Shown here: positions 618-28,590 of the stretch, one piece after another
Layout of the letters: each line of letters begins with the position of its first letter
How positions within the stretch are numbered: the first letter of the stretch is position 1
Origin: Opitutales bacterium
GTDB taxonomy: Bacteria; Verrucomicrobiota; Verrucomicrobiia; Opitutales; PNEW01
Length of the DNA stretch: 32,000 bases
Assembly: GCA_965219535.1 (NCBI GenBank)
Contig: CBDCNV010000002.1
Location: forward strand, 1,320,001-1,352,000
Direction: 5' to 3'
The notes under the pieces: generated by a model
Seen by the model: only the letters and a program-made list of their open reading frames with translations
Database searches by the model: none
What the model was told of the DNA's origin: nothing
Made by a program: the position numbers and the translations under genes

Positions 618-646
618 GTCGAAAGTCGAAGGTCGAAAGTCAAAAG
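618..646 (+). repeat. octamer array (GTCGAAAG/GTCAAAAG)x3-4
   Basis: gtcgaaagtcgaaggtcgaaagtcaaaag, 83 nt after the stop at 535. Confidence 0.8.
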
Positions 647-677
647 AGGGAGTGTAAGTAAAAACCGATAGGATTTT

Positions 678-708
678 CTTGCATCTTGTATTCTGAATCC
701 TGCATCCT
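678..708 (+). repeat. heptamer array (TTGCATC/TTGTATT-type)
   Basis: cttgcatcttgtattctgaatcctgcatcct, between the octamer array and MITE copy 1. Confidence 0.7.
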
Positions 709-711
709 CTC

Positions 712-819
712 TTGTCATTGCGAAGGAGGAGTAGCCGACTGCGGCAATCCAGGGGCTGACGATATGCGTACGAAATTCCTCTGGATCGCCACGGCTGTAA
801 ATCAGCCTCGCGATGACAA
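712..819 (+). repeat. MITE-like palindromic element, copy 1
   Basis: Termini TTGTCATTGCGAAGG / CCTCGCGATGACAA and inner inverted pair GCGGCAATCCAGGGG / CCTCTGGATCGCCAC. Lies 40 nt upstream of the 859 start. Confidence 0.85.
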
Positions 820-858
820 ATATAATAATACAACAATACGTCCAAACGAAACGCCAAA

Positions 859-2001
859 TTGGTAAATCCTAAAACATACGAAATAGCCGTCCTCAAGGGA
901 GACGGTATCGGTCTCGAAGTCGTCGATGAAGCCTTGCGAGTACTGGAGGCGGTTGCAGTAGTGGAAGAGATACGATTTAACTTTAATGATTATCCCTCGG
1001 GTGCTGACTGCTACCTGGCACAGGGCACGCCGTTGCCGGATGATACCCTGGTCGCCTGTCGGCAAGCGGATGCGGTGCTGCTCGGCGCAATGGGAAACCC
1101 GGAGATCCGTTGGCCCGACGGTACGGAGATGCGACCCCAGGTGGATCTGCGCTTCAAGCTCGATCTCTATGCCGGGGTGCGTCCAATCTATCTATACGCT
1201 TCACACCATACACCGCTCAAAGGCTACGAAGCAGGGGATATCGATTTTGTCCTCCTCCGTGAAAATGTTGAAGGGTTGTTTGCGTCGATGGACTCCGGCA
1301 TCGAGCTGCGGGGTGAGGTGGCGACTGATACGATGGTTATTACGAAGGATGGCACGGAACGCATTGTCGCCTATGCATTCCAACTTGCACGAGAGCGACA
1401 GTTGGCAAGGGGATCAAGTGGTATAACTGAATTTGTCCCCAAAGTTACCTGTGTCGACAAGGCCAACATTTTTCGATCGATGGCATTCTTTCGTCGCGTT
1501 TATGATGAAGTGGCTGAGAACTATAATGAAGTTGGCCGGGAGTACGCCTACGTCGACGCGATGGCCCAATATCTGGTTCAGCGGCCCGAAGAATATGACG
1601 TCATGGTCATGGAGAATATGTACGGTGATATACTTTCGGATCTTGCCGCAGGTATTGTCGGCGGACTGGGGATGACGCCATCGGGAGATATAGGTAAGGA
1701 TGCGGCGGTCTTTCAGCCGTCACATGGAACCGCACCCGACATTGCCGGTAAGGGTATCGCTAACCCCGTTGCCACGATTCTCTCAGCGGGTATGATGATG
1801 AAATGGCTGGGCAGTTGCTTTAATGACGAAGCGACAACGCGTGCCAGCGAATGCATCGAGCAAGCAGTTAAAAGCGTGTTGGCTGATCCGACTAATGGGA
1901 CACCGGATCTTGGTGGCGATATGACCACCTCACAATTCGGAACCAAAATCGCAGAAGCGATTTTTGAGTCAAAAAGTCAAAAGGTCAAAAAGTCAAAATG
2001 A
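859..2001 (+). CDS. isocitrate/isopropylmalate dehydrogenase family oxidoreductase (LeuB/TtuC-like)
   Basis: IAVLKGDGIGLEV near the N-terminus and NMYGDILSDLAAGIVGGLGMTPSGDIG match the family signature. TTG at 859 is the only start near the conserved N-terminus. The last 11 codons (ESKSQKVKKSK) are encoded by the octamer array at 1967-1998. Confidence 0.8.
   Translation: MVNPKTYEIAVLKGDGIGLEVVDEALRVLEAVAVVEEIRFNFNDYPSGADCYLAQGTPLPDDTLVACRQADAVLLGAMGNPEIRWPDGTEMRPQVDLRFKLDLYAGVRPIYLYASHHTPLKGYEAGDIDFVLLRENVEGLFASMDSGIELRGEVATDTMVITKDGTERIVAYAFQLARERQLARGSSGITEFVPKVTCVDKANIFRSMAFFRRVYDEVAENYNEVGREYAYVDAMAQYLVQRPEEYDVMVMENMYGDILSDLAAGIVGGLGMTPSGDIGKDAAVFQPSHGTAPDIAGKGIANPVATILSAGMMMKWLGSCFNDEATTRASECIEQAVKSVLADPTNGTPDLGGDMTTSQFGTKIAEAIFESKSQKVKKSK
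1967..1998 (+). repeat. octamer array (GTCAAAAR)x4
   Basis: agtcaaaaagtcaaaaggtcaaaaagtcaaaa, forming the last codons of the 859-2001 CDS. TGA follows directly. Confidence 0.9.
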
Positions 2002-2008
2002 GAATATT

Positions 2009-2049
2009 TTGTATCTTGAATCTTGCATCCCGCATCACCGTATCCTGTC
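2009..2049 (+). repeat. heptamer array (TTGTATC/TTGCATC-type)
   Basis: ttgtatcttgaatcttgcatcccgcatcaccgtatcctgtc, 10 nt after the octamer array at 1967-1998. Confidence 0.75.
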
Positions 2050-2055
2050 ACACAC

Positions 2056-3251
2056 TTATTCAGCCTTATACTTATAGGACGATAGCTGTTCTTCGGTAAT
2101 TTGCACACCGAAGCCCGGTCCGTCAGAGGGGGTCAATATGCTATCTTTAGGCGTAGCCATTCCCGGCAGTAGATCTGCTTTCTGGGGCGACTCACCGGGT
2201 GGTGCCACTACCGAGCATTCCGCCCATGAGATGGCGGGCATGGCATAACAGGCGTGCTGCCCATAAGGTGTATTGCCACCGCCGTGAGGGATAACCGAGA
2301 TTCCCGCCGCTTCAGCGATCGCACAGATCTTTGTAATCGCCGTTAATCCTCCCACCCAGTGAATGTCTGGCTGGAATATGTCTACCAGGTGGCGGCTGGC
2401 AGCGTGCTGAAAAGGTACTGGTGTGTACCAATGTTCTCCTGTAGCCAGTGTCTGCCAGGGAACACGCTGACGCAGTTGGGCATGGGCATCGAAATCCTCA
2501 GAGCGCAGCGTTTCCTCCATCCACTTAAGCTTGTATGGCCGCAACTCCTCTGCCAGGCGCACGGCGTAATCCACGTCGAATGCCATCCAGCAGTCTAACA
2601 TCAACTCTACATCATCGCCGACCAGTTCACGATTCCTCGCTACAAATTCTACGTTCTTCTTTAGACCTTCCAAGCCATCGGCGGGACCGTAGGGGCAGGG
2701 CAGTTTAGTAGCTTTGAACCCGAGCTCCATGTACCAGTCGGTGTCCCCTCCAGTGGAGTAACAGAACAACTCCTCTCGCGCCGGGCCACCCAGCAATTCG
2801 TAAACCGGTCGATCCATTAATTTTCCTTTCAAATCCCACAAGGCAAGATCGATAGCGCTCACGGCGTAGGAGTGGAGCCCCGTCGCACCAAAAGGTGCGC
2901 CCATGCGCACCATCATATCGTAGCATTTTTCAGTCGCGGTGCAGTTTTCACCGACGAGACGCGGCCCGAGGTAGTCATCGATGATCGCGGCCACGGGGCG
3001 GCCGTGATTGGCGACGGAAAAACCCCAGGTTCCGTCTTCAGCTTCGACTACACAGCCGAAATTTTTCCAGGTAGGGTACCAGATGGGCGGAACGCTGCGT
3101 AGCGAGGGTAGCGTGTCACGGGGTTGGCGACGGGACCATTTTCTCTCCACGAAGGTCGGCGCGCAGTCTTGTACTTATCGCTCGAGGAGCTCCCTTTGGT
3201 GTTGGTCTCCGGGAAACTCACATTGACGGCACGGATGGATTTGATTTTCAT
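2056..3251 (-). pseudogene. L-rhamnonate dehydratase-like enolase-superfamily gene interrupted by a 1-nt frameshift (or assembly error)
   Basis: ORF 2056-3150 (VEAEDGTWGF, DLALWDLKGK, LMLDCWMAFDV, LKWMEE, PDIHWVGG) resembles the RhamD/YfaW subgroup. The expected N-terminus (MKIKSIRAV...VANPVTRYPRY) lies in ORF 3048-3251 in another frame. The two frames join near 3083-3090. Confidence 0.75.
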
Positions 3252-3259: not shown

Positions 3260-3293
3260 AGTCAAAAAGTCAAAAGGTCAAAAAGTCAAAAAG
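3260..3293 (+). repeat. octamer array (GTCAAAAR)x4
   Basis: Same 32-34-nt sequence as at 1967 and 5294. Ends 8 nt from the minus-strand ATG at 3251. Confidence 0.9.
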
Positions 3294-3333
3294 TTCATCG
3301 AAGGTCTGTCATTGTATTTTAATTATTGAAACC

Positions 3334-3818: not shown

Positions 3819-3923
3819 TTGTCATTGCGAGAAGCAACGTGACGAAGCAATCCAGGCGGCTATCAGTACGCATCCGGCATTCCCCTGGATCGCCGCGGCT
3901 GACCAACAGCCTCGCGATGACAA
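3819..3923 (+). repeat. MITE-like palindromic element, copy 2
   Basis: TTGTCATTGCGAG...GCAATCCAGG...CCTGGATCGCC...CTCGCGATGACAA, between the GNAT stop and the serine hydrolase start. Confidence 0.85.
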
Positions 3924-4020: not shown

Positions 4021-5295
4021 ATGTACAAATTTAATCCCCGATTTTTATTAACCGCATTCGTTTTGTTGCTCACCTGTTTGTCGGTTTCAGCACAGGGATT
4101 ATCTAGAGCCAAACCAGAAGAGGTCGGACTTTCATCGGAGCGGCTTCAGCGCTTGAGTGCTGTCTTTCAGGAATATGTAGACGAGGGTAAACTCTCTGGT
4201 TCGGTGATCATGATCGCTCGGCATGGAAAAGTTGCCTACCTGGAAGCGTTTGGTCAACGCGATCGCGAATCAAAATCACCGATGAAAACTGATACCATCT
4301 TCCGTATCGCCTCTCAGACCAAAGCCTTGGTCAGTGTGGGCGTGATGATCCTTCAGGAAGAGGGGCAACTTCTCATCTCCGATCCTGTAGGAAAGTATAT
4401 TCCCGAATTCCAGGAGACGACGGTGGCCGTTGCAAAGGAAGGCGGCGGGTATGATGTTGTGAAAGCAAAACGACCTATAACGATCCGTGACCTGCTCACT
4501 CACACTGCGGGTATCAATTATGGCGGTGGAGTGGCCAGTGAACGCTGGGAGGAGGCCGGAATTCAAGGCTGGTATTTTGCCGATCGAGATGAACCGATAA
4601 GTGCAACAGTTTCTCGCATGGCTTCTCTTCCTTTTGTCGCACAGCCCGGTGAGCGCTGGGTCTATGGATACAACACCGACATTCTCGGTGTTGTCATCGA
4701 AAGTGCCTCCGGACAAGCTCTCGATGATTTTCTCCATGCCCGACTATTCAAACCACTGGGTATGCGTGACACCCATTTCTATTTACCACCAAAATATAAA
4801 AATCGATTGGCCGTCGTATATTCGGCGTCAAAAGAAAATGATCTTGAACGATCTCCGGACGCGGGAGGCATGATTGGACAGGGAGCCTATGTCGAGGGTC
4901 CGCGTAAAAGTTTCTCTGGCGGTGCCGGTATACTCTCGACCGCGATAGATTATACCAGCTTCCTGCAGATGATGCTCAATGGAGGTTTGTTCAATGGTAA
5001 TCGTATTCTCTCTCCCAAAACCGTCGATTTGATGACTGTGGATCACGTGGGTGATATCTTTCGTGGAGACGGAAGGGGTTTTGGCCTGGGCTTTTCTTTA
5101 GTGGAAGATTTAGGAGAGAGAGGCGTGCCGGGTTCAGTTGGCGAGTTTGGCTGGGGTGGGGCCTACCACACAACCTACTGGGTCGATCCGGAGGAGCAGT
5201 TGGTGGTAACCTATTTTACACAGTTGCGGCCTACCAATAATCTCGACGATCACGGTAAACTACGCGCTCTCATCTACCAGGCGATAATTGAGTAG
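4021..5295 (+). CDS. secreted serine hydrolase, beta-lactamase/esterase (class C-like) family
   Basis: Signal peptide (LLLTCLSVSAQG), S-x-x-K motif (ASQTK), Y-x-N (YGYN) and GWGG near the C-terminus. Confidence 0.85.
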   Translation: MYKFNPRFLLTAFVLLLTCLSVSAQGLSRAKPEEVGLSSERLQRLSAVFQEYVDEGKLSGSVIMIARHGKVAYLEAFGQRDRESKSPMKTDTIFRIASQTKALVSVGVMILQEEGQLLISDPVGKYIPEFQETTVAVAKEGGGYDVVKAKRPITIRDLLTHTAGINYGGGVASERWEEAGIQGWYFADRDEPISATVSRMASLPFVAQPGERWVYGYNTDILGVVIESASGQALDDFLHARLFKPLGMRDTHFYLPPKYKNRLAVVYSASKENDLERSPDAGGMIGQGAYVEGPRKSFSGGAGILSTAIDYTSFLQMMLNGGLFNGNRILSPKTVDLMTVDHVGDIFRGDGRGFGLGFSLVEDLGERGVPGSVGEFGWGGAYHTTYWVDPEEQLVVTYFTQLRPTNNLDDHGKLRALIYQAIIE

Positions 5296-5327
5296 TCAAA
5301 AAGTCAAAAGGTCAAAAAGTCAAAAAG
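5294..5327 (+). repeat. octamer array (GTCAAAAR)x4
   Basis: Begins inside the TAG stop (5293-5295) of the serine hydrolase gene. Followed by GGGAAATGCGTATACGCGG. Confidence 0.9.
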
Positions 5328-5433
5328 GGAAATGCGTATACGCGGACATGCGTGTATGCGACGAAGCGGATTGGGAAAAATTAGGAATAGACCACATGAG
5401 AAGCGAAGGGTTTCAATTTCTTTTTGTGCCTTT

Positions 5434-5472
5434 GAAAGATGTCGCCACGCTGCCGCGGGACTCGGTAGTGGC
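5434..5472 (+). repeat. GAAGATGTCG...CTCGGTA motif, divergent copy
   Basis: gaaagatgtcgccacgctgccgcgggactcggtagtggc, with a GCCAC/GTGGC stem. Confidence 0.55.
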
Positions 5473-7095: not shown

Positions 7096-7110
7096 GAATT
7101 ATATATAAAT

Positions 7111-7141
7111 CTTCGTCTTCGTCTGCGTCTACGTCTTCGTC
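7111..7141 (+). repeat. hexamer array (CTTCGT)x5, left arm of a long inverted repeat
   Basis: cttcgtcttcgtctgcgtctacgtcttcgtc, 15 nt upstream of the sialidase ATG (7095, minus strand). Confidence 0.85.
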
Positions 7142-7198
7142 AATGTATTAATAAATAATTATTGCATTACAATTTATTTTGGTAGGATCGCGTTATCC

Positions 7199-7263
7199 CG
7201 GCCACGACGGAGCGTGGCCCTCCAGATAAAGAAAAAATGGAGGGCCACGCTCCGTCGTGGCCG
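7199..7263. repeat. perfect 26-bp-stem hairpin with 13-nt A-rich loop
   Basis: cggccacgacggagcgtggccctcca / gataaagaaaaaa / tggagggccacgctccgtcgtggccg. Each arm also contains its own 7-bp palindrome GGCCACG-n6-CGTGGCC. Confidence 0.9.
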
Positions 7264-7357
7264 CTTTGATGCATGATAATTATTTTATCTAGTATTTAGG
7301 TATAAAGCTATGCTCAAAAGAGTTTCTAATTTGTGTCTCTTGTGCCTATCTCAGCAA

Positions 7358-7390
7358 GGACGAAGACGAAGAGATAGACGAAGACGAAGC
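7358..7390 (-). repeat. hexamer array (GACGAA)x5, right arm of a long inverted repeat
   Basis: ggacgaagacgaagagatagacgaagacgaagc, an imperfect reverse complement of 7111-7141. Confidence 0.85.
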
Positions 7391-7419
7391 TATTGCTATA
7401 TGTGGTCACAATTCTTTAG

Positions 7420-8097: not shown

Positions 8098-8225
8098 TTG
8101 TCATTGCGAGGAGCATAGAGACGAAGCAAACCAGGGGGATAACGTTATGCTTCCGGTATTTCTCTGGAATGTAATATGTCGTTGCGCTCGGTAGCCACGG
8201 CTGATAAGCAGCCTCGCGATGACAA
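8098..8225 (+). repeat. MITE-like palindromic element, copy 3 (about 22-nt internal insertion)
   Basis: Same termini. The right inner arm is interrupted (TCTCTGGAAT-gtaatatgtcgttgcgctcggtag-CCACGGCTG). Confidence 0.8.
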
Positions 8226-8248
8226 AGTAAATAAAATGGGTATCACAA

Positions 8249-9367: not shown

Positions 9368-9460
9368 TATATATCCCTAGCTCTTATTTTATTCTCCAGC
9401 AGTGTCGCACTGTAAGTCGTGGTGAAAATCGTCATGTCCTGTCAAGATGAGGAAGGGATG

Positions 9461-9489
9461 GTAAAAAGTCAAAGGTCGAAGGTTTAAAG
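9461..9489 (+). repeat. degenerate octamer array
   Basis: gtaaaaagtcaaaggtcgaaggtttaaag in the divergent gap 9368-9570. Confidence 0.6.
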
Positions 9490-9570
9490 CTTATCCTTCA
9501 ATAATTAAAAATCGATTGGATAAACTTGTCTTTTGCGTCCGCTATCGTGCAACCTGTAAGCAATCCCGTT

Positions 9571-11562: not shown

Positions 11563-11646
11563 TCACTTCTTCAATAATAAATTAATCAAACGCGCTAGGA
11601 AACAGCTTTCCGTTCCACCTTATGTCTATCCAATCCAAAAAAGTTA

Positions 11647-11695
11647 ATCTTGCATCCTGTATCATGCATCTTGTATCAATCCTCAATCTGAAATC
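11647..11695 (+). repeat. heptamer array (TTGCATC/TGTATCA-type)
   Basis: atcttgcatcctgtatcatgcatcttgtatcaatcctcaatctgaaatc. Confidence 0.75.
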
Positions 11696-11696
11696 A

Positions 11697-11720
11697 GTAC
11701 TGAGGGCGAAGCCCGACAGC
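11697..11720 (-). repeat. TGTCGGGCTWCGCCCTCRGTAC motif copy (inverted)
   Basis: The reverse complement reads gctgtcgggcttcgccctcagtac. Lies 14 nt upstream of ATG 11734. Confidence 0.65.
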
Positions 11721-11733
11721 CCCCTAAATTGAA

Positions 11734-13224
11734 ATGACCTGTTATCGTACTGCTTATCACTATCAACCGCCTTCCGGGTATTGTGGTGACCCGTTATCAT
11801 TCTGTTGGAATGGTGAGTATCACATTTTCCCCAATCATATTGAGTGCACAGGGAAAGATTGGAACCCGTGGTTACATGGGGGGGGCGACTGGGGGCATAT
11901 CGTGAGTAATGACCTGGTGCACTGGCGACAATTGCCGGACGCCCTGGTAACGACACCAGGAGGAGTTGACAGTGACGGCTGCTGGAGCGGTAGTATTGTT
12001 GAGAACAACGGGGTGTTTCATATCCTCTATACAGGGCTTCACAAAAACACACCCATCTCGCATCCCAAGGAAGGTGCGACATTCACTCAGAATCATGCGA
12101 CAAGCACCGATATGATTCACTGGGTAAAGGATCCCCGGAATCCGATTCTTTCCTCACCACCCAAAGGCTACGGTGAGAACAAATTCCCGGGTACCTTCTT
12201 TCACGACCCGTTCGTGTGGAAGGAAGCAGATAGTTGGTACATGATCGTGGACACCTACGACGCGGCTGTGCCGATTGACAGAATGCTGCTTTACCGCTCG
12301 AACAATCTCATCGACTGGGAGTTCCTCCAATCGCTTTTCGAAAACGAGGGAAAGATACATTCACCCCTGCCGGATTTCTTTCCCTTGGATGGGAAACACG
12401 TGCTTTTAATTAATGGTTTAAGAAAAGAAGGGGATACCTATTCATTCGGTTATTACAACCATTGGTATGTCGGGCAATATCGGGACCATCGATTTTATCC
12501 CGAAACAGAGGGGGAACTTGATGGTGGATACCTGCATGCGGTAAGGACCTGTTACGATCATAGAAAGAGGCGTTTATTATGGGGGATGGTACGGGAAGGC
12601 AGACCTCGTGAAGAAGTACTGAAGGAAAATTGGGCGCAGGCCATGTCACTGCCGAGAGTCCTCTCGCTGTCTGATGATGGTCAACTCTTAGTCGAGCCGG
12701 TACCCGAGTTGGAGGCGCTTCGTTTGCGACACAAGCGCGTGGAAAAGTTTGATTATCGGCCGACACACAAGATTGCGGATCATGGTGTGCAGATTATGGA
12801 GAGTATTAAGGGCGACTGTTTAGAGATTGTAGCACGGCTGCGGCCCCTAACCGCGCAACAGTTCGGGCTCGCTGTCTGCTGCGCTCCAGACATGAGTGAA
12901 TACACGACAATCACCCTGGATTGCATTAACGGGACGTTAAAGACCTGCAATTACTCTTCTCCTGCTGGAGGCGAAGTCGTGATGGATGGGGTATTCAACA
13001 CAGCGCCATGGAGCCCGGAGAAAAATGATGAGGTCGAGTTGCACGTATATGTCGACCACTCTGTAATTGAGATATTTGTCGGTGAAGGCAGAACCTCACT
13101 GACCTGGCGCGTGTATCCGACGCATCCCGAAAGCAACCACCTCGGTGTGTTTGCAATGCAGGGTGAAGTCGAGGTGACATCACTCGAGGTCTGGGAGATG
13201 AGATCAGTGAACAGTAAACAGTGA
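11734..13224 (+). CDS. glycoside hydrolase family 32 homolog (beta-fructofuranosidase-like), atypical active site
   Basis: YHYQPPSGYCGDPLS...YHIF (block A, Asp kept), WGHIVSNDLVHWRQLP, CWSGSIV, FHDPFVW (RDP-like) and AMSLPRVL. The EC-motif Glu position reads SPLPDFF. The tail SVNSKQ is encoded by a GTGAACA-type array. Confidence 0.8.
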   Translation: MTCYRTAYHYQPPSGYCGDPLSFCWNGEYHIFPNHIECTGKDWNPWLHGGGDWGHIVSNDLVHWRQLPDALVTTPGGVDSDGCWSGSIVENNGVFHILYTGLHKNTPISHPKEGATFTQNHATSTDMIHWVKDPRNPILSSPPKGYGENKFPGTFFHDPFVWKEADSWYMIVDTYDAAVPIDRMLLYRSNNLIDWEFLQSLFENEGKIHSPLPDFFPLDGKHVLLINGLRKEGDTYSFGYYNHWYVGQYRDHRFYPETEGELDGGYLHAVRTCYDHRKRRLLWGMVREGRPREEVLKENWAQAMSLPRVLSLSDDGQLLVEPVPELEALRLRHKRVEKFDYRPTHKIADHGVQIMESIKGDCLEIVARLRPLTAQQFGLAVCCAPDMSEYTTITLDCINGTLKTCNYSSPAGGEVVMDGVFNTAPWSPEKNDEVELHVYVDHSVIEIFVGEGRTSLTWRVYPTHPESNHLGVFAMQGEVEVTSLEVWEMRSVNSKQ

Positions 13225-13764: not shown

Positions 13765-13804
13765 GAATTAAGTTAAGAATTAGAAATTAGGAATTATGAA
13801 ATAA
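13765..13804 (+). repeat. heptamer array (GAATTAR-type)
   Basis: gaattaagttaagaattagaaattaggaattatgaaataa. Begins 4 nt from the minus-strand ATG at 13761. Confidence 0.75.
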
Positions 13805-17080: not shown

Positions 17081-17113
17081 AGTCAAAAGGTCAAAAGGTC
17101 AAAAAGTCAAAAG
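17081..17113 (+). repeat. octamer array (GTCAAAAG)x4
   Basis: agtcaaaaggtcaaaaggtcaaaaagtcaaaag. Ends 6 nt from the minus-strand ATG at 17074. Followed by GGGAAGAAG. Confidence 0.9.
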
Positions 17114-17130
17114 GGAAGAAGTGCTAAATC

Positions 17131-17198
17131 GCGTTTTATGTTTTATGTGTTAGATTTTAGGTTGATATTCTTAACACTTAACGCCTAAAACTTAACAC
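17131..17198. repeat. inverted pair of heptamer arrays (CYTAAMA family)
   Basis: Left arm gcgttttatgttttatgtgttagattttaggttg (reverse orientation). Right arm cttaacacttaacgcctaaaacttaacac. Lies in the divergent gap between the aldolase and PhyH starts. Confidence 0.75.
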
Positions 17199-17213
17199 TG
17201 ATCTTTTCCCTAT

Positions 17214-17978: not shown

Positions 17979-17980
17979 TT

Positions 17981-18006
17981 AGTCAAAAAGTCAAAAGGTC
18001 AAAAAG
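17981..18006 (+). repeat. octamer array (GTCAAAAR)x3
   Basis: Starts 2 nt after TGA 17976-17978. Followed by GGGAAGAGCGC. Partner of the inverted array at 18053-18084. Confidence 0.9.
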
Positions 18007-18049
18007 GGAAGAGCGCTGGCACGCATGTTCGCTTACTAGAATTCAGCAT

Positions 18050-18937
18050 TTAGACTTTTGACCTTCGACCTTTGACTTTCGACTGGCCAGAAACTGGCCT
18101 AGGCAGCCCCTCGGGGAAACCATAAGGGGTGTCGTTTCGGTGTGCAGGTAGAGGCCAGCTCTGACCACCGAGGTTCTGAAATTTCTCATATTCACCGCAC
18201 AGCCATAAAAACATTTTCGCTACCTTGATGTCTGAACGGAACTGTTCGACAAAGGCCTCGATAGGGCTTGAGTAGTCGACGGTGGCAAAATCAAAGTCCT
18301 CTTCAACGGTCCAATCACGAAGTGGAGGTGTGGTGCGCCAATAAAAGTACTTCAGCATATTGCGCATACCTTCAGCCGTGGCAGGTCCTCTGCGATGCCA
18401 GATCTGGTAGGCGGTAATGAAAATAGATCCTGCTGGCGCAGTCGCGGACACGGTCCCTGCAATACCACCCAGGTGGGCCATGAATTTTGCCATATTGCGT
18501 ACCAGGTGAGAACCGGGCAGAATCTGTGTTGGCCCCATCTCTAACGGTGTGTCCTGCGGGTAGTAAAATACCTGGAGATAGTTTAGTTCGTGTCCGAAGT
18601 CGAAATTGCCGTCCACATGCCAGTTCTGTTGTGAATAGGGAGCCATCATACGGTGGTTGCTCATCAGTATAGGCAGATGAAAGTCTCGACCCAGGAGTGA
18701 GCGCACAGCACCGGCTACCTTTTGGTTAAGGATGACATTATCTATGAACCAATCCTCTTTCAGGATGTCAGTGGGTTCGTAATAATCGTCTTGACCACAA
18801 TACTGCGTGGTCATGCGGTTTATTTCGTCAGGGACCACTCCCTTGAATAGGATGTACCCCCGCTTGCAGAATTCCAAAACCTGGCCGTCTGTCAGCGTCG
18901 GCGCGCAGTTGGCACATTTTTCTTTTTTTTCGGTCAT
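18050..18937 (-). CDS. phytanoyl-CoA dioxygenase (PhyH) family oxygenase
   Basis: LTDGQVLEFCKRGYILFKGVVPDE, H-x-D (NWHVDGN) and distal His (IWHRRG). The C-terminal SGQSKVKGRRSKV is encoded by the inverted octamer array at 18053-18084. Confidence 0.85.
   Translation of the reverse strand: MTEKKEKCANCAPTLTDGQVLEFCKRGYILFKGVVPDEINRMTTQYCGQDDYYEPTDILKEDWFIDNVILNQKVAGAVRSLLGRDFHLPILMSNHRMMAPYSQQNWHVDGNFDFGHELNYLQVFYYPQDTPLEMGPTQILPGSHLVRNMAKFMAHLGGIAGTVSATAPAGSIFITAYQIWHRRGPATAEGMRNMLKYFYWRTTPPLRDWTVEEDFDFATVDYSSPIEAFVEQFRSDIKVAKMFLWLCGEYEKFQNLGGQSWPLPAHRNDTPYGFPEGLPRPVSGQSKVKGRRSKV
18053..18084 (-). repeat. octamer array, inverted orientation
   Basis: gacttttgaccttcgacctttgactttcgact. Encodes the C-terminal tail of the 18050-18937 CDS. 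Confidence 0.85.
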
Positions 18938-19311
18938 CGATTGTTAAAGCGTTCGAGGATGAATTCAAAGCCGAGGCCCTGCGGATCAGATTCTGATACA
19001 GCCAGCAGGGCCATGTTGGGAAAACTGATGATCCGCCAGCCATCACGAACCGCTTCCAGCACCGTCTTGTAGGGCCAGTTTTTCGGGTCCGGTGGGCCTT
19101 CAAATAACTGACCGTCCTCGATCATCGTCATGCCGATGACATCTCCCTGTAGTGATGTATTGTTGCTCTGCAGGTAGAGAATGTCTTGCCGCATCTTGTC
19201 GGCGTGCGGCAATAGTGTATCGATACCCCGGCGCAATTCATCGACCGTCAGCGTACCCGCTTCAAGTTTAGTTGCGAGCGCCTCAGTAATTTCACTTTGC
19301 TTTTCGGTCAT
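18934..19311 (-). CDS. hypothetical small protein, translationally coupled to the downstream PhyH gene
   Basis: 125-aa ORF from ATG 19311 (AGGA about 10-13 nt upstream). Its stop overlaps the PhyH start in ATGA at 18934-18937. No motif recognised. Confidence 0.6.
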   Translation of the reverse strand: MTEKQSEITEALATKLEAGTLTVDELRRGIDTLLPHADKMRQDILYLQSNNTSLQGDVIGMTMIEDGQLFEGPPDPKNWPYKTVLEAVRDGWRIISFPNMALLAVSESDPQGLGFEFILERFNNR

Positions 19312-19437
19312 TACCTTGTTTCCTAAAATTGTTCTTGTGCCTTTGGTAGATCTCACTTCGCTTAGGTAGTGTATCTTGTGGCTATCTATTCAATCGGCAA
19401 TCGAAAATTTTCAATATGTATACGCGGGAATTTCTAA

Positions 19438-20565: not shown

Positions 20566-20578
20566 TCAGCAATAGCCG

Positions 20579-20657
20579 TGTTAGGTGTTAAGTAATTCAA
20601 CCTAAAACTTAACACCTAAAACCTAAAACGCGCAGGTGCGCCTTCGCGCATCAGCGC
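20579..20657. terminator. hairpin built from CYTAAMA heptamers plus GC-rich mini-hairpins; candidate bidirectional terminator
   Basis: gtgttaggtgttaagt pairs with acttaacacctaaaac. Followed by cctaaaacctaaaac and gcgcaggtgcgccttcgcgcatcagcgc. Sits between convergent stops at 20565 and 20657. Confidence 0.45.
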
Positions 20658-22396
20658 TACTGCCAGGGAAATTGCAGGGTCGGTTGGTTCGCGTAGCGAT
20701 TGATTTTAATCGTCATCGTCGCGCCCGATCCTGGTGCCAGTCGCACTTCAAATGAAGGGCTTCCAACTTCAATCTCCTTACCTTCTACATTCACTGACAG
20801 ACATTCATGCTCACCGTAAGCCCCATTCTGTACGATAACACTCCGTTCTTCTAATTGATTAACATTGACCAGAGTCACCCGTGTCGTCTCCTCGGTAATC
20901 GTATCGATGAGTGCGCCTACTTCATCGGGGAGACCGGGTCTGCGTAATTCAGGATCAAAATAGCGCAGACGACAATGTGTCGCCTGGGCGCGGTAAGGTG
21001 GGGGGCCTCCAGCCATCAACTGAAATAAATTCCCAACCAGGGCGGGATTAGAGTGATTGGGATTATCGGAAAGACGCGTATCTGGAGTGGTCGGGTCGTT
21101 TTTGATCAGTTCTAACCTTTCATGCAGAGTGACAAAATCTTTTTGCAGGGCATCGATGGGGAAATTTGGATTGTCACCATCGAGAAAAGCCAGCCATTCA
21201 TTATCGCTCACGCGTTCTTTGTCTTTCTCCTTCATTGACCAGTAATACACATTGAGTGCACCCTCGGAATAAGGTGTGGGTGAAAATTCATACCAGCCTT
21301 CATCGCCGTACATGTGCGGATATACGGTCTCACCCTCGACCGTCTTTTTATTGGCATTTACTGCATCGATCATAGCGCTCCACGTGTCTACATATTTCAT
21401 GTTCCCGGTGAGGATAAGTGCGTTTCCGAATCCGGCTATCCCCAGTCGAGTCGTATTCCGATGAGCGAGTTCACCGTTTTGAGGGATGACCGTGGTAAAA
21501 CCCCAACCGTAACAACCGCCATACCATTTTCCATCACATGCGCCACCAATGGTACCATCGAGTCCTATATTTGAGGGCAGGATGTCATTGTTTGCCGCCG
21601 CTCTTTCGATCCAGGCATCCACATATTCTAATACCCAATCGCGGTACTTTTCTTCTCCCAAAACACAGTAGGCGTCGAAAGCGAGTCCCGTGGCGACGAG
21701 GTTAGAGGGATGATCACCGATCACGTCCGTATAATCCTGGAAATGCGCGAGCATCTCCTGGTAATTGCGTTCACCATGTATAAGAATGAAACGGCCTTCT
21801 TCAATAGGATCACCGGTCCAGTCGAGGGCCGTTGCTTTTCGAAGCATCGGGCCTCGGCTTCCATTGAACAGGCTGCGAATTATCTTATGCTCCGGGTCAT
21901 AATTTGGGGCCTCTTCGTCTTCGTTCATGTAGAGACCCGACCAGAGCTTGAGCCTTCGCTGATAGTCGGCATCAGCCGGATCACAAAGACCGATAGCGCC
22001 AAAAACGGACATGCTTTCACCGTTGTGCAGCCAGTCTCCCATGACCGGGAACTCTTTATAGTACATCCCGTCCCGGGCAAAAGGCACCTCGACCGTTTTC
22101 GCCTCGGTGTATTGCTGGATGTGACATTCCTGAGCGTGGTGGCACATCTCGAGCAGGATTTCAGAACCGCCCAGCGCATAGAGTATCGGCCAATCCGTGA
22201 GATTTTCTATCGCGTCATCCGGACCATCATCTCCACCCCAGCGAGGGACACAACGCATGTATCCTCGGTCGTCGAAATACTTGTCATAAAATATTTCACA
22301 CGCCTGGGTCTGGGCATGGATGAGTTCAAGTTCCATTAACGCCCATGATGGTGGGACCATCGGGGTTTCGATTTCAATCACTACGGGTTGATTCAT
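20657..22396 (-). CDS. hypothetical protein, possibly (alpha/alpha)-barrel glycosidase/lyase-like with C-terminal beta-sandwich
   Basis: 579-aa ORF with coding-like composition and no signal peptide. Function is guessed only from Trp/Gly/Tyr-rich helical-repeat-like core blocks (KWYGGCYGWGF) and a beta-rich tail. Confidence 0.55.
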   Translation of the reverse strand: MNQPVVIEIETPMVPPSWALMELELIHAQTQACEIFYDKYFDDRGYMRCVPRWGGDDGPDDAIENLTDWPILYALGGSEILLEMCHHAQECHIQQYTEAKTVEVPFARDGMYYKEFPVMGDWLHNGESMSVFGAIGLCDPADADYQRRLKLWSGLYMNEDEEAPNYDPEHKIIRSLFNGSRGPMLRKATALDWTGDPIEEGRFILIHGERNYQEMLAHFQDYTDVIGDHPSNLVATGLAFDAYCVLGEEKYRDWVLEYVDAWIERAAANNDILPSNIGLDGTIGGACDGKWYGGCYGWGFTTVIPQNGELAHRNTTRLGIAGFGNALILTGNMKYVDTWSAMIDAVNANKKTVEGETVYPHMYGDEGWYEFSPTPYSEGALNVYYWSMKEKDKERVSDNEWLAFLDGDNPNFPIDALQKDFVTLHERLELIKNDPTTPDTRLSDNPNHSNPALVGNLFQLMAGGPPPYRAQATHCRLRYFDPELRRPGLPDEVGALIDTITEETTRVTLVNVNQLEERSVIVQNGAYGEHECLSVNVEGKEIEVGSPSFEVRLAPGSGATMTIKINRYANQPTLQFPWQ

Positions 22397-22403
22397 GAGG
22401 GAA

Positions 22404-22434
22404 GGGTTCAGGGTTCAGGGTTCAGGGTTCAGGG
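22404..22434 (+). repeat. heptamer array (GGGTTCA)x4
   Basis: gggttcagggttcagggttcagggttcaggg. Begins 7 nt from the minus-strand ATG at 22396. One extra unit at 22463-22472. Confidence 0.9.
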
Positions 22435-22436
22435 TG

Positions 22437-22463
22437 GAAGATGTCGGGCTACGCCCTCGGTAC
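22437..22463 (+). repeat. GAAGATGTCGG...CTCGGTAC motif copy
   Basis: gaagatgtcgggctacgccctcggtac, immediately after the (GGGTTCA)4 array. Confidence 0.7.
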
Positions 22464-22535: not shown

Positions 22536-22558
22536 CTTAAAACTTACACTTAACACTG
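22536..22558 (+). repeat. heptamer array (CYTAAMA family)
   Basis: cttaaaacttacacttaacactg. Confidence 0.7.
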
Positions 22559-22587
22559 AATATTTGAAAAAGTTATCATTAATTGAA

Positions 22588-22926
22588 TTAAAAATTCAAC
22601 AAACCGGGTTTCTGTTTTTCCCAGCCATCATCGGAGGGGAAGACGGTCTGCATATCATGTTTTGAGGGTTCGCCATCGAAAAACGGGGCGACGGCTTCTT
22701 TCCATACAAGAAAATGCGGTGTTTCGAGATGTGCCTGGAAGGCGTCTCTATCGCGGTAGACTTCATGGAGATAAAATCGCGAGGGGATTTCCGAGTCCTG
22801 ATGGATGTCGAAACGAAAGCAACCGGGTTCGTCGCGCACAGATCCCTGCGAGTCTCCAAGGCTGGCCACTTTGAACGCTTCTACATTTACCGGTTTAATG
22901 TTAATGGTGACGAATATTGAATACAT
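22588..22926 (-). CDS. antibiotic-biosynthesis-monooxygenase (ABM) domain protein (YgiN-like)
   Basis: About 110 aa, with FRFDIHQD...FYLHEVYRDRDAFQAHLETPHF typical of the ABM fold. Confidence 0.8.
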   Translation of the reverse strand: MYSIFVTINIKPVNVEAFKVASLGDSQGSVRDEPGCFRFDIHQDSEIPSRFYLHEVYRDRDAFQAHLETPHFLVWKEAVAPFFDGEPSKHDMQTVFPSDDGWEKQKPGLLNF

Positions 22927-23013
22927 ATCTTCCTTTGCTTTTATTATGTGAATTGTTCATTAGGTTTTTCGACTCCTTTTCAACTCGGGCAATCAATTGT
23001 AGATTAATTCTCT

Positions 23014-23122
23014 TTGTCATCGCGAGGGCGCTTGTCGACCGTGGCGATCCAGGGAAATGTCGGACGCGTGATATTAATCCCTTGGTTTGCCGCAGTCGGC
23101 TACGCCTCTTTCGCAATGACAA
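23014..23122 (-). repeat. MITE-like palindromic element, copy 4 (inverted orientation)
   Basis: Its reverse complement begins TTGTCATTGCGAAAGAGGCGTAGCCGACTGCGGCAAACCAAGGG, matching the start of copy 1. Lies in the divergent ABM/DLH promoter region. Confidence 0.85.
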
Positions 23123-23181: not shown

Positions 23182-23213
23182 CCTTTTGACCTTTGTTCTT
23201 TCGGCTTCTTGAC
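23182..23213 (-). repeat. degenerate octamer array, inverted orientation
   Basis: ccttttgacctttgttctttcggcttcttgac. Ends 7 nt before ATG 23221. Confidence 0.55.
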
Positions 23214-23220
23214 TATCAAC

Positions 23221-24110: not shown

Positions 24111-24130
24111 CGCGCGTTTTAAGTTTAAGG
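24111..24130 (-). repeat. heptamer array (CYTAAMA family, inverted) with GCGC end
   Basis: The reverse complement reads ccttaaacttaaaacgcgcg. Lies 12 nt after the DLH stop. Confidence 0.6.
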
Positions 24131-24139
24131 TGGAGCGAG

Positions 24140-24180
24140 CTGCCAGCCAGCCATAGCCTTGGCGAAGGTTGGTCCCTAGC
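24140..24180 (+). repeat. GCCATAGCC...GGCGAAGG motif copy
   Basis: ctgccagccagccatagccttggcgaaggttggtccctagc. Confidence 0.55.
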
Positions 24181-24244
24181 GCGCTTCTTAAGTAATGAGA
24201 AAGAGCTGATAGGGATTTGCTTATTAAAAGAAAGGTAGATAAAA

Positions 24245-25083: not shown

Positions 25084-25116
25084 GAAATAATGATTTTATG
25101 GCCCTCTTGACTTCTA

Positions 25117-25158
25117 CTTAAAACTTAACACCTAAAATCTAAAACTGAAAAATCTTAA
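25117..25158 (+). repeat. heptamer array (CYTAAMA family)
   Basis: cttaaaa cttaaca cctaaaa tctaaaa ctgaaaa atcttaaa. Ends 11 nt before ATG 25170. Confidence 0.85.
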
Positions 25159-25977: not shown

Positions 25978-26010
25978 TTAACACCTAAAACCTGACACGC
26001 GCATCAGCGC
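25978..26010 (+). repeat. heptamer array (CYTAAMA family) + GCGCATCAGCGC
   Basis: ttaacacctaaaacctgacac followed by gcgcatcagcgc, the same 12-mer as at 20646-20657. Confidence 0.8.
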
Positions 26011-27344: not shown

Positions 27345-27366
27345 CAGAGGAGGCGCTGAAGCGCCA

Positions 27367-27395
27367 GTGAACAGTGAACAGTGAACAGTGAATCA
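27367..27395 (+). repeat. heptamer array (GTGAACA)x4
   Basis: gtgaacagtgaacagtgaacagtgaatca. Preceded by the mini-hairpin GGCGCTGAAGCGCC (27352-27365) just after the SBP stop. Confidence 0.9.
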
Positions 27396-27479
27396 ATTTC
27401 CGATTTCCGATTGTCGATAGACGATTGTAGAGTGACGTGGATGTATGGATGATTAGAATATTGGAAAGTTGGGTAAACC
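27396..27479 (+). repeat. decaying heptamer array (ATTTCCG-derived), 12 units
   Basis: Parses in strict 7-nt register: atttccg atttccg attgtcg atagacg attgtag agtgacg tggatgt atggatg attagaa tattgga aagttgg gtaaacc. Confidence 0.7.
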
Positions 27480-27527
27480 AGTAGTATACCCCCGTATTCA
27501 TCCATACTTTCAAAAATCCAGCTAAGA

Positions 27528-27578
27528 TCTGAAACTTGACCCCAAAAACTTAAAACCTAACACGCACGTAAGCGCTCC
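27528..27578 (+). repeat. heptamer array (CYTAAMA family) + GC-rich end
   Basis: tctgaaacttgaccccaaaaacttaaaacctaacac followed by gcacgtaagcgc. Confidence 0.7.
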
Positions 27579-27581
27579 CCA

Positions 27582-27601
27582 CTTTGGACCTTCGACTTTT
27601 C
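27582..27601 (-). repeat. short octamer array, inverted orientation
   Basis: ctttggaccttcgacttttc, 32 nt upstream of ATG 27634. Confidence 0.6.
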
Positions 27602-27633
27602 AATACCTATTTTAGCATTCTTATAATTCAACA

Positions 27634-28440
27634 ATGACATTTAAGTTAGGCTACTGTGCAATACACTGGAAAAATCCGGATTTAGAACCGGCCTTAGAAG
27701 CGCTTAAGGAAGCGGGTTGGGACGGTTGGGAAGGGCGCTTGCCCCTGAATTGGCTTGGTACACCGCAACACGTACGGCGTATATGTGAAAATGTCGACAT
27801 GCCCCTGGCCATATTTACAGCCGCTGGTTCGCCAGATAATCGCGCACGCGAAAACAGCGAACTGAACAAGCGTCGTATCGACTTTGCCGCTGAAGTCGGG
27901 GCCGATTGCTTTATGTATATGAACGGGGACAAGCCGGAGGGGCGAGTAGTGAATGATGATGATCTCAAGATTGCGGCTGAAGGTGCTGAGATGTGGGCTG
28001 ATTATGCCGCGCAATACAACTTGGAGATAAGTTATCATATTCATACCAACTTATTGGTCGATAGTTCAGAGCACTGGAAATCCTATATGGGTTATCTCAA
28101 CAAGGCTAAACTCTGTATCGATGTATCGCACTCACATTTATGGGGCTATGACCCGGTCGAATCTATTCGAGACTTTAAAGATCACCTGAATTACATTCAT
28201 TTACAGGACTATACCTCCTACACTCAGCATGAGGATGGCTACCATGATCCCGTCTGGTGCGCCGTTGGGGAGGCAGAAGCCTGTGACTTCCCCGCGATAG
28301 CGACAGTACTCAAAGAAATTAACTATGATAGTTGGGTTACAGGTTGTCCCGGTGCGCCGCAGCCAGGAAAAGATGATGCATTGAGCATGGCTGAGTCCAG
28401 TCAATCGATGTGCGCTTATATGCGCCGGGTTGGTTACTGA
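27634..28440 (+). CDS. sugar phosphate isomerase/epimerase (xylose isomerase-like TIM barrel)
   Basis: About 268 aa, with LEALKEAGWDGWEG, YHIHTN and IHLQDY blocks. Confidence 0.8.
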   Translation: MTFKLGYCAIHWKNPDLEPALEALKEAGWDGWEGRLPLNWLGTPQHVRRICENVDMPLAIFTAAGSPDNRARENSELNKRRIDFAAEVGADCFMYMNGDKPEGRVVNDDDLKIAAEGAEMWADYAAQYNLEISYHIHTNLLVDSSEHWKSYMGYLNKAKLCIDVSHSHLWGYDPVESIRDFKDHLNYIHLQDYTSYTQHEDGYHDPVWCAVGEAEACDFPAIATVLKEINYDSWVTGCPGAPQPGKDDALSMAESSQSMCAYMRRVGY

Positions 28441-28451
28441 ATAAGGGGTTC

Positions 28452-28559
28452 AGGGAGAAAGATATACGATGTTTGATATCCGACCTTTGATGTGCGAAGG
28501 AAATTCCAATACATCATAAATCGAATATCGGATATCAAACGTCGGATATCTTTCCCCCT
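28452..28559. terminator. about 32-bp imperfect inverted repeat of GATATCC-type heptamers; candidate bidirectional terminator
   Basis: Left arm agggagaaagatatacgatgtttgatatccga (28452-28483). Right arm tcggatatcaaacgtcggatatctttccccct (28528-28559), about 4 mismatches. Between convergent stops at 28440 and 28591. A further direct copy cgtcggatatcatt lies at 28564-28577. Confidence 0.45.
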
Positions 28560-28590
28560 CGCACGTCGGATATCATTCCCAAAACGAAAA

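Follow-up and report, generated by a model that had tools for sequence, protein, structure and literature searches.

The window considered here is a 32,000-nt stretch of an Opitutales bacterium (assembly GCA_965219535.1, contig CBDCNV010000002.1, positions 1,320,001 to 1,352,000 of the forward strand). Its genes encode enolase-superfamily enzymes, PhyH dioxygenases, BNR sialidases, GH32, pyrroloquinoline quinone (PQQ) dehydrogenase and cytochrome c, a content that indicates heterotrophic polysaccharide and sugar-acid metabolism. The gaps between these genes carry short tandem arrays of mostly heptameric and octameric words, such as GTCAAAAR and CYTAAMA, which were first described in a reading of the letters alone (the original prediction). 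The arrays are of a known kind, the short tandemly repeated repetitive (STRR) or long simple sequence repeat (LSSR) type, found here in a new phylum and with an unusually rich vocabulary.

Short tandem arrays in the gene gaps

Lag autocorrelation was calculated for the gene gaps (3.8 kb of intergenic DNA), compared with 100 dinucleotide shuffles, and for the coding cores (26.5 kb). Intergenic identity at lag 7 is 0.342 against 0.261 in the shuffles (z 10.5), and lags 8, 14 and 6 are raised as well (z 8.1, 6.6 and 5.0, respectively). The coding cores show period 3 alone and no signal at 7 or 8. The program Tandem Repeats Finder (TRF) returns 27 rows of short arrays with periods of 6, 7, 8 and 14, all between long open reading frames (ORFs) or at ORF edges. 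A strict detector reports 10 arrays, none of which (0/10) falls within the coding cores, so that the earlier statement that coding DNA holds nothing comparable is upheld. Arrays are longer and more frequent than composition predicts, which is the LSSR criterion, as seen both in the lag 7 and 8 z-scores and in the 141 arrays present in 53 kb of non-coding DNA from the clade described below.

The original prediction saw arrays in almost every gap. With a TRF score of at least 30, an array is found in 15 of the 24 gaps of at least 40 nt (13/24 with an automatic gene map), and about 22 of the 24 are reached only by a generous count that includes two-unit remnants and a palindromic element. Several arrays extend into or provide stop codons (1967-1998, 18053-18083, 13205-13224 and 5294) and are hence not strictly intergenic. 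The individual coordinates given earlier correspond to TRF rows at 618, 680, 1967, 3260, 5294, 7110/7359, 11647, 13773, 17082, 17133/17170, 17981, 18049, 20599, 22403, 25116, 27365, 27396 and 28461, and weaker arrays are visible by direct reading at 9461, 13205, 2009, 22536, 23182, 24111, 25978 and 27528/27582. Two descriptions need amendment: the heptamer series at 27396-27479 is real, although about six rather than 12 units are recognisable (matches to unit 1: 7, 7, 5, 4, 4, 4, 0, 3, 3, 2, 3, 2), and the CYTAAMA array at 17131 is present in the inverted form.

Three independent assemblies, made from different samples, agree exactly in the array sequence. An independent metagenome contig from ENA (L003), which covers 9441-21719, differs solely by two homopolymer indels inside genes. 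In addition, two short-read contigs are 100% identical to the window and each ends inside the array at 17090, the expected behaviour for a multi-copy repeat.

Lineage distribution, turnover and gene-facing polarity

The closest named genome is the Opitutales metagenome-assembled genome (MAG) chromosome OY829953.1 (L004), whose genes share 93-95% nucleotide identity with the window, and the host is thus, as first supposed, not a cyanobacterium. A JGI contig (L005) is syntenic with the window and shows 91% protein identity. Arrays are present in both, with intergenic lag 7 values of 0.332 (L004) and 0.322 (L005), so that the excess at this lag extends to related genomes. Two loci of more distant relatives, L006 and L007 (68% and 66% protein identity), give 0.257 and 0.260 and lack the intergenic signal, which confines the trait to a sub-lineage.

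When metagenomes were scanned for (GTCAAAAR)3, at least 120 contigs were returned, with 26-62% GC among the matches listed. Since the word is therefore not diagnostic by itself, a clade set was defined by tetranucleotide signature (r >= 0.8 to the window), comprising about 28 marine contigs and 245 kb of non-redundant sequence, in which arrays also occur. Here, 141 arrays (periods 7, 8, 9, 14 and 16) lie in 53 kb of non-coding DNA and 33 in 191 kb of coding DNA, a density difference of about 15-fold. The non-coding arrays include 37 of period 7 (and 19 scored as 14), 51 of period 8 (and 11 as 16; inflated by the search word) and 23 of period 9, the last being relatively commoner in ORFs, which hold 12. 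The 149 intergenic arrays of the clade, distributed over 21 contigs, fall into 41 families, 16 of them recurrent and 25 singletons: GTCAAAAR (about 59, likewise search-inflated), CYTAAMA (21), the 9-mer CACAAGRGG (17), GGGTTCA-like (9), CAGTGAA (7) and CTTCGT (5) are among the recurrent ones. Copy number has its mode at four units (56/118), with a median array length of 29.5 nt.

Two GC-rich contigs, L102 (8.4 kb, GC 0.59) and L096 (8.9 kb, GC 0.60), carry even denser arrays made of entirely different words of 7 or 8 nt (among them TAGAAAA, CTTCTCA, GAAGAGA, TTCTATC, ATCTGGGT, GGTAACT, TTTCGACG and GAATGGC), often as adjacent near-complementary pairs that face two divergent genes. An unrelated conserved element, (GGTCAAAA)3 between GGTCACATGCGACTCCCACACCGACTTCAA and GTCAAGGTCACGGGGCGGGGGCATATTGTGGCGGCCACC, was seen in L014, L033, L034, L042, L044, L057, L075 and L080; it occurs in many freshwater contigs of another tetranucleotide signature and could represent phage or plasmid iterons.

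While flanking genes remain 93-95% identical between relatives, the arrays change by unit indels, word replacement and nested insertion. Between contigs of 99.6% identity, 7.9 kb contain a single multi-nucleotide indel, of one 7-nt unit, and L061 differs from L004 by one 8-nt GTCAAAAA unit and one 7-nt unit. Three relatives carry 4, 1 and 3.5 copies of GTCAAAAR by the HpcH-family gene, and CAGTGAA after the solute-binding-protein gene has four copies in the window and seven in L005. At 13765, the window holds (GAATTAR)5 where L004 and L005 hold two and three GTCAAAAR units, in a gap whose other 200 nt are about 95% conserved. In L004, a 120-nt module of GATATCCGAC-type inverted arrays interrupts the GGGTTCA array at 22403; the module also occurs at 28446 of the window, with an identical junction. 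Gene ends move along with the arrays: the PhyH start codon is an ATG at the array junction in the window and a TTG inside an AATCGNN array in L004 and L005, the IMDH-like protein ends in ...SKSQKVKKSK* in the window and ...SKSQ* in L005, and a PhyH-like protein ends in ...QSKVKGRRSKV*, ...KKSEQ* and ...ASD* in three genomes.

Where the window has a convergent gap filled with arrays (17979-18049), a 5.1-kb block of four genes (PhyH, two BNR_4 and one Reg_prop propeller) is found in L004 (10763-15859), flanked on one side by GTCAAAAR/ATGCGNNN arrays and on the other by CAGTGAA/GACACCC/GAACCC arrays. Genes may be gained and lost at array gaps. The block was considered as a source of a spreading enzyme, which was rejected, as it carries just the PhyH, BNR and propeller genes.

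Each word presents one fixed end to the neighbouring gene, at start and stop boundaries alike. Among clade boundaries within 45 nt, the 5' end of GTCAAAAR faces the gene in 40 cases (25 starts and 15 stops) and the 3' end in 3. The GTC end lies either at the stop codon of a co-oriented gene (14-15 cases, -47 to +29 nt) or at the start codon of a gene on the opposite strand (25-30 cases, spacing mode 7-9 nt), with 13 arrays 6-12 nt from the start codon and 23/30 within 42 nt; from the 3' end, the nearest gene is always at least 40 nt away. The polarity of CYTAAMA is also fixed and opposite to that of GTCAAAAR (11 vs 3), and the smaller families give 4:0 (CAGTGAA), 3:0 (the 9-mer) and 5:2 (GGGTTCA). 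Two seeming exceptions in the window, the arrays at 3260 and 23182, obey the rule once gene starts are corrected. For the former, the true start of the minus-strand enolase-superfamily gene 2056-3251 is ATG 3249-3251 (MKIKSIRAVNV...), whose frame differs from that of the long ORF from 3150. The frameshift around 3045-3150 could be a long-read homopolymer error or mark a pseudogene, and explains why an exact-sequence look-up of the protein gave no match.

On the array strand reading away from the gene, G exceeds C in 68 of 85 adjacencies, and array-free flanks have no skew. As a unifying rule this skew was set aside and kept as a lead only, given that the count per family is just 17:7 (p 0.06). 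The four-unit mode is accompanied by frequent inverted pairs (7110/7359, 17133/17170, 17981/18049, 20579/20599 and 28461-28577).

Array catalogue, folding and companion elements

Table 1. Arrays and associated structures of the window. W1, GTCAAAAR family; z, folding relative to shuffles.
Feature	Position	Strand	Context	Detection
(GTCRAAR)4, W1	618..646	+	downstream of ORF 35-535	TRF + reading
(YTGYATC)4, W3	678..708	+	after W1 array, same order as 1967/2009	TRF + reading
(AGTCAAAA)4	1967..1998	+	last 32 nt of ORF 859-2001, codes tail ...SKSQKVKKSK*	TRF
(TTGYATC)~5, W3	2009..2040	+	convergent gap	direct reading
(AGTCAAAA)4.4	3260..3294	+	5' end 9 nt from ATG 3249-3251 (minus strand), enolase-family gene	TRF
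(AGTCAAAA)4.2	5294..5327	+	overlaps TAG stop of ORF 4021-5295	TRF
(ATGCGNNN)~5 octamer, W10	5330..5368	+	directly after W1 array; part of recurrent composite W1-W10-E2; hairpin z -2.5	
(TCTTCG)5, foldback module arm	7110..7141	+	whole gap (7096-7419) folds at -127 kcal/mol, z -12.6	TRF
Near-perfect 26-bp hairpin, foldback module centre	7200..7274			reading + folding
Inverted (TCTTCG)5 arm	7359..7389	-	plus strand reads GACGAA	TRF
Degenerate W1 array (GTAAAAAGTCAAAGGTCGAAGG)	9461..9485	+		direct reading
(YTGYATC)4.5, W3	11647..11678	+	orthologous site in L004 has 2 units fewer	TRF
CAGTGAA CAGTAAA CAGTGA, W5	13205..13224	+	provides TGA stop of GH32 gene	reading
(GAATTAR)5	13765..13802	+	3 nt from start of tRNA-editing-domain gene (13294-13761, minus strand)	TRF
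(GTCAAAAR)4	17082..17114	+	5' end 7 nt from start codon of HpcH-family aldolase gene (minus strand)	TRF
(GTKTTAR)4 ... (CYTAAMA)4 inverted pair, hairpin	17133..17199		right arm ends 15 nt before PhyH ATG; 17125-17205 z -3.1	
(AGTCAAAA)3	17981..18006	+	begins 3 nt past PhyH stop codon	TRF
W1 array	18049..18084	-	3' end of ORF 18050-18937, tail ...QSKVKGRRSKV*; pairs with 17981-18006	TRF
GTGTTAGGTGTTAAG ... (CYTAAMA)4 hairpin	20579..20629		convergent gap; then two GCGC-N4-GCGC mini-palindromes; 20575-20635 z -4.9	
(AGGGTTC)4.7 perfect	22403..22435	+	6 nt from start of minus-strand gene 20657-22396	TRF
(CYTAAMA)3.5	22536..22560	+	near stop of gene 22588-22926 (minus strand)	reading
Degenerate W1 remnant (TTTTTCGACTCCTTTTCAACTC)	22966..22986	-		TRF + reading
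Degenerate (YTTTTGAC), ends TTGACT	23182..23214	-	6 nt, then ATG 23221, true start of dienelactone hydrolase gene	
GTTTTAAGTTTAAGG, two inverted CYTAAMA units	24116..24130	-	16 nt after stop codon; adjoins half copy of E3 palindrome	
(CYTAAMA)5	25116..25151	+	ends 19 nt before ATG 25170	TRF + reading
(CYTAAMA)3, then GCGCATCAGCGC	25978..25998	+		direct reading
(CAGTGAA)4 perfect	27365..27392	+	follows GCGCTGAAGCGC mini-hairpin; 20 nt past stop codon; 7 copies in L005	TRF
(ATTKYCG) heptamer series, ~6 recognisable units	27396..27437	+		TRF
(CYTAAMA)~5	27528..27565	+		direct reading
W1 array	27582..27603	-	30 nt before ATG 27634; in composite W1-GC core-CYTAAMA	reading
Inverted GATATCCGAC-type 14-nt arrays, hairpin	28461..28577		preceded by GGGGTTCAGGG; 28455-28580 -45.7 kcal/mol, z -5.9	TRF
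1.5 W1 units (AGTCAAAAGGTCA on minus strand)	29948..29962	-	4 nt after stop of gene 29964-30968	reading

Relative to their shuffles, direct arrays fold poorly (z +0.7 to +1.5). For clade genes with an upstream array, the region from -50 to +12 was compared with that of other genes: array-bearing leaders are less structured (minimum free energy -5.25 vs -7.37 kcal/mol, p 0.02) at equal GC, and G-poor on the mRNA-sense strand (0.133 vs 0.188, p 2e-5). A general role of the arrays as a source of 3' hairpins was rejected, since array-bearing 3' flanks do not exceed array-free ones in structure (z<-2 in 12% vs 10%) and strong folding is confined to specific inverted pairs. Sigma-70-type promoters and canonical intrinsic terminators do not exceed shuffles in the window, and direct reading finds Shine-Dalgarno (SD)-like motifs to be rare upstream of its start codons, so that expression signals in this organism appear non-canonical. 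No family of Rfam 15 matches the window at gathering score. Two further candidates were dismissed: the TTGAC of reversed GTCAAAAR as a -35 element, because by direct reading a usable -10 is never at the right spacing, and integron attC sites, whose GTTRRRY/RYYYAAC cores resemble CYTAAMA words, because the cores come in reversed order and syntenic chromosomal genes lie here in both orientations.

The arrays also occur in fixed combinations. The GTCAAAAR array is succeeded by a purine-rich GGGRRG, behind which there is often either a GCGC-N4-GCGC mini-palindrome plus an inverted CYTAAMA array or a (ATGCGNNN)n array plus a small hairpin element (GATGTCGGGC...CCCTCGGTA, E2). These two composites, W1-core-CYTAAMA(inverted) and W1-(ATGCGNNN)n-E2, are each present at 4-8 or more unrelated loci. 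The ends of the arrays vary little (T-A|GTCAAAA ... AAAAG|GGRR), and modules are present or absent between relatives. In some gaps, arrays are concatenated (e.g. L103 4393-4674, window 27365-27603). Neither a clear target-site duplication at the arrays nor a cognate transposase, such as the REP-associated tyrosine transposase RAYT, was identified in the loci and contigs examined.

Several companion elements were observed alongside. GCGC-N4-GCGC mini-palindromes at 20630-20657, 25999-26010 and 27353-27364 directly adjoin CYTAAMA and CAGTGAA arrays; GCGCATCAGCGC occurs twice, and 4/6 of the motifs in the window are intergenic. Among the companion elements is a small hairpin, GATGTCGGGCT-N3-GCCCTCGGTA with a GGGC/GCCC stem, found at 5438-5467, 13244-13266 and 22440-22462, as an inverted copy near 11690-11715, and in L004 at 9870-9895 and 10835-10855; the copy at 22440 lies within the GGGTTCA array with CAGGG on both sides, and the element recurs as the terminus of the composite GTCAAAAR-(ATGCGNNN)n-element. 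A palindrome of about 80 nt, AAGGTGGAGCGGGCTGTCCCTAGCACGC ... GCGCTAGGGACAGCGCGTTCCACCTT (E3), is located at 18367-18450 of L004 and at about 8160-8240 and 10050-10130 of L005, with half copies at 24126-24190 and 11588-11620 of the window, and its presence differs at orthologous gaps of relatives. Words of the GTTTTAAGG/CCTTAAAAC type continue from its termini, and CYTAAMA arrays may therefore have grown from its ends.

The palindromic element of 105-128 nt is a separate, MITE/REP-like dispersed repeat (miniature inverted-repeat transposable element/repetitive extragenic palindrome) with five copies, at 705-819 (-), 3819-3923, 8098-8225, 23014-23120 and 29833-29940. It has termini TTGTCATTGCGAGG ... 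CCTCGCGATGACAA and a CCAGG/CCTGG core, lacks an Rfam match and occupies gaps without strong arrays. The hairpin at 7200-7274 (26 bp, GC-rich, GGCCACGACGGAGCGTGGCCCTCC ... GGAGGGCCACGCTCCGTCGTGGCC, with an A/T-rich loop and a T-run) is bracketed 60-85 nt away by the inverted (TCTTCG)5 arms, and is the sole canonical terminator-like site in a gap of the window.

Origin of the arrays and relation to known repeats

The best reading of these observations, to which we give about an even chance, is that the arrays are lineage-specific repeats of STRR/LSSR type that are resized by slippage, copied between gaps and filtered by selection. Part of the same reading, and just as finely balanced, is the view that they are mostly tolerated or selfish filler with generic side-effects rather than gene-specific regulation. 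Replication slippage with a preference for units of about 7-8 nt would create and resize arrays, as suggested by the whole-unit indels between near-identical contigs. Recurrent vocabulary, constant junctions and presence/absence differences point to copying, in which arrays and companion modules may spread between gaps as modular, partly foldback, elements, or by template switching or gene conversion. Exclusion from genes and the G-poor, unstructured sense strand at starts are consistent with a selection filter that would keep placements tolerated by gene expression, i.e. a G-poor, unstructured mRNA-sense strand beside start codons, with inverted pairs, and hence strong hairpins, probably kept away from them. 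The side-effects would then be 5' leaders without structure, hairpins on the 3' side and short C-terminal tails rich in K, S and Q. Gene-facing polarity, the mode of about four units and whole-unit turnover recur whatever the word, which argues for a general mechanism. The common generating or selecting mechanism proposed in the original prediction fits the unit-length indels, the four-unit mode and the cross-word polarity; these do not demonstrate it, and the recurrence of the vocabulary needs copying or convergent selection in addition.

Several points weigh against this reading. Slippage alone leaves the recurrence of few words at unrelated loci unexplained: a small vocabulary in fixed combinations makes local slippage insufficient and copying or convergent selection necessary. 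The approximately 300 kb examined, which were not systematically scanned, revealed no transposase, no reverse transcriptase and no other enzyme for spreading. The tight start spacing (mode 7-9 nt) and the like-for-like replacement of arrays look more like selected function, and polarity at stop codons has no obvious selective cause under a pure filter model. Furthermore, most GTCAAAAR arrays have no inverted partner, so that the picture of foldback arms misses the family with the strongest polarity. Finally, the clade sample was drawn by searching one word, GTCAAAAR, and the share of that family and the period-8 count are inflated.

The main rival, which we consider unlikely, regards the arrays as RNA-level cis-elements, namely a ribosome standby site or S1/Csp-type platform in an SD-poor organism. 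YUUUUGAC, CYUAAMA and UGAACCC in mRNA sense, 6-12 nt upstream of starts, would give a G-poor, pyrimidine/A-rich leader in which composition counts for more than the word and words can be swapped. The start-adjacent GTCAAAAR arrays, 25/27 of which share one sense, agree with this proposal in their spacing, as do the composition and weak structure of array-bearing leaders, the poor folding of direct arrays and the rarity of SD-like motifs. At 13765 and 17170, another word of like properties holds the same leader position in relatives, and the same proposal has been made for TAACTGA in Beggiatoaceae (PMC4679880). However, a leader role is inapplicable to the 15 of 43 gene-adjacent GTCAAAAR arrays that lie at stops in the opposite sense, and most clade genes have no upstream array and leaders that are not G-poor. 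Copy number and even presence differ between close relatives that retain the gene, and the location of arrays in the transcribed 5' untranslated region is an assumption.

Somewhat more doubtful still is a role as boundaries, either insulators or terminators at the DNA or RNA level (intrinsic-like or Rho-dependent) or tandem protein-binding sites, for which the TTTTGAT heptads of ToxR/H-NS at the Vibrio ctx promoter are an analogue. An unstructured C>G strand would read toward the gene and a G>C strand away from it, and inverted pairs, as well as GC mini-hairpins with a U-rich GUUUUAG array after them, would block read-through and antisense transcription. Polarity is alike at starts and stops and is therefore defined by the gene body rather than by transcription direction. 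The away-strand G>C excess, with no skew in array-free flanks, agrees with this role, even though the skew counted per family is marginal. Strong hairpins lie at three convergent or tandem gaps, mini-palindromes adjoin arrays at 20630, 20646, 25999 and 27353, and the GC-rich lineage of L102 has a like organisation with other words. Canonical intrinsic terminators are not enriched, so that another 3'-end signal is needed, but 3' flanks with arrays are no more structured than others. With an array 7 nt from the start codon, a roadblock or Rho utilization (rut) site would act on the transcript of that very gene as well, the 7-8 bp period mismatches the helical repeat, and many unrelated words would require many binding proteins.

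Telomerase copies a short template reiteratively, and a dedicated reverse transcriptase or primase-polymerase could write the arrays likewise at DNA ends or nicks beside genes, which we regard as very improbable. The outward 5'->3' polarity at both gene ends matches telomere-type addition, concatenated arrays would be accommodated, and a 7-8-nt unit across unrelated words would be explained. Period and modal length are common to families and phyla (PMC4692102). Against this, a gene for such an enzyme was not seen in the same, not systematically scanned DNA, and unit-length indels with gradual unit decay correspond to ordinary slippage and point mutation. That unit size, length and outward polarity shared across words and lineages (Xanthomonas, Nostoc, L102) reflect one conserved reiterative templated synthesis by a polymerase, primase or reverse transcriptase at DNA ends or nicks near genes, and not passive slippage with selection, is a long shot, if slightly less so; were it true, the Opitutales populations abundant in marine metagenomes would be a system for identifying that process. 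Assembly or sequencing artefacts and chance low-complexity sequence are ruled out for practical purposes by the identical independent assemblies, the z-scores of 8-10 over dinucleotide shuffles and the same families in related genomes and more than 100 metagenome contigs, even though short-read contigs that break inside one array show such repeats to be hard to assemble.

Whatever their origin, the arrays have practical consequences: they break short-read assemblies and alter predicted gene ends through C-terminal tails and array-supplied start codons, which matters for the annotation of these genomes. Public metagenomes contain many closely related marine populations, a comparative system for tracing how arrays arise, spread and disappear.

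In cyanobacteria, intergenic heptamer arrays have been on record since 1990; those of Xanthomonas and Beggiatoaceae were reported later, and the Verrucomicrobiota now join as a fourth, unrelated phylum. The literature searched yielded no description of such repeats in Opitutales or Verrucomicrobia. Among non-coding intergenic repeats, REP elements, bacterial interspersed mosaic elements (BIMEs) and MITEs are small and often palindromic, and the arms of Drosophila Foldback (FB) elements are inverted tandem short repeats. The filling of gaps, mosaic and nested structure and variable presence are shared with all of these, and the window carries the 105-128-nt palindrome, E2 and E3. Unlike REPs, BIMEs and MITEs, the arrays are direct tandem repeats with whole-unit changes in copy number.

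The cyanobacterial analogy of the original prediction is apt, the window having several families of mostly heptameric or octameric, dispersed tandem arrays kept out of coding DNA; the class already had non-cyanobacterial members in the LSSRs, in GGGAATC of Xanthomonas and in TAACTGA of Beggiatoaceae and Bacteroidetes. STRRs were reportedly described by Mazel and colleagues in 1990 in Calothrix, Nostoc and Anabaena, with words said to include CCCCAGT, TTGGTCA and CAACAGT. No dimer of these words occurs in the 245 kb of clade DNA; CAGTGAA/GAACAGT are presumably the nearest, to STRR3 CAACAGT. STRR units are usually 7 bp long, the repeats often form hairpins, and roles in transcript stability or translational coupling were proposed (PMC2670836). 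Several heptamer words per genome, in tandem at many dispersed non-coding sites and often hairpin-capable, are common to both, whereas the host here belongs to the Verrucomicrobiota, the commonest family (search-inflated) is an octamer and a 9-mer family is present as well.

LSSRs have units of 5-11 nt, most commonly heptamers, are scattered among phyla and were proposed to reflect a slippage bias to that length (Mrazek, 2007, as cited in PMC4679880). Long repeats with non-triplet units kept out of genes are found in both, as far as the class is described there (Mrazek, Guo and Shah, 2007), and the whole-unit copy changes seen here agree with slippage. LSSR denotes a statistical class rather than a mechanism, and Verrucomicrobia are not among the highlighted genomes in the account of PMC4679880. 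TAACTGA arrays of 2-6 copies precede start codons by a few nt in SD-poor Beggiatoaceae and in some Cyanobacteria and Bacteroidetes, where binding of S1, Csp or CsrA was proposed (MacGregor, 2015; PMC4679880). Closeness to start codons, scarce SD sites and a patchy phylogenetic distribution are shared, while a single dominant word there, with few related heptamers, contrasts with many words here, and a third of the gene-adjacent GTCAAAAR arrays lie at stops. No TAACTGA dimer is present in the clade DNA (245 kb).

GGGAATC of Xanthomonas and GGGGAYT of Nostoc form arrays of mostly four units, often as inverted pairs, that vary between close relatives (Rehm et al., 2015; PMC4692102). There, repeats up to 50 bp upstream of an ORF lie on its non-coding strand, and those that overlap a stop codon or lie within 50 bp of it are on the coding strand (PMC4692102). 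No dimer of either word was detected in the 245 kb of clade DNA. Those repeats belong to one G-rich, G-quadruplex-capable family, in contrast to more than 10, mostly A/T-rich families here, among which a G3 run occurs only in GGGTTCA, and in Xanthomonas they are under-represented between divergent ORFs, whereas many arrays here occupy divergent gaps beside start codons. With different words, the two systems nevertheless share an equal polarity rule, the four-unit mode, inverted pairs, rarity in coding DNA and rapid divergence.

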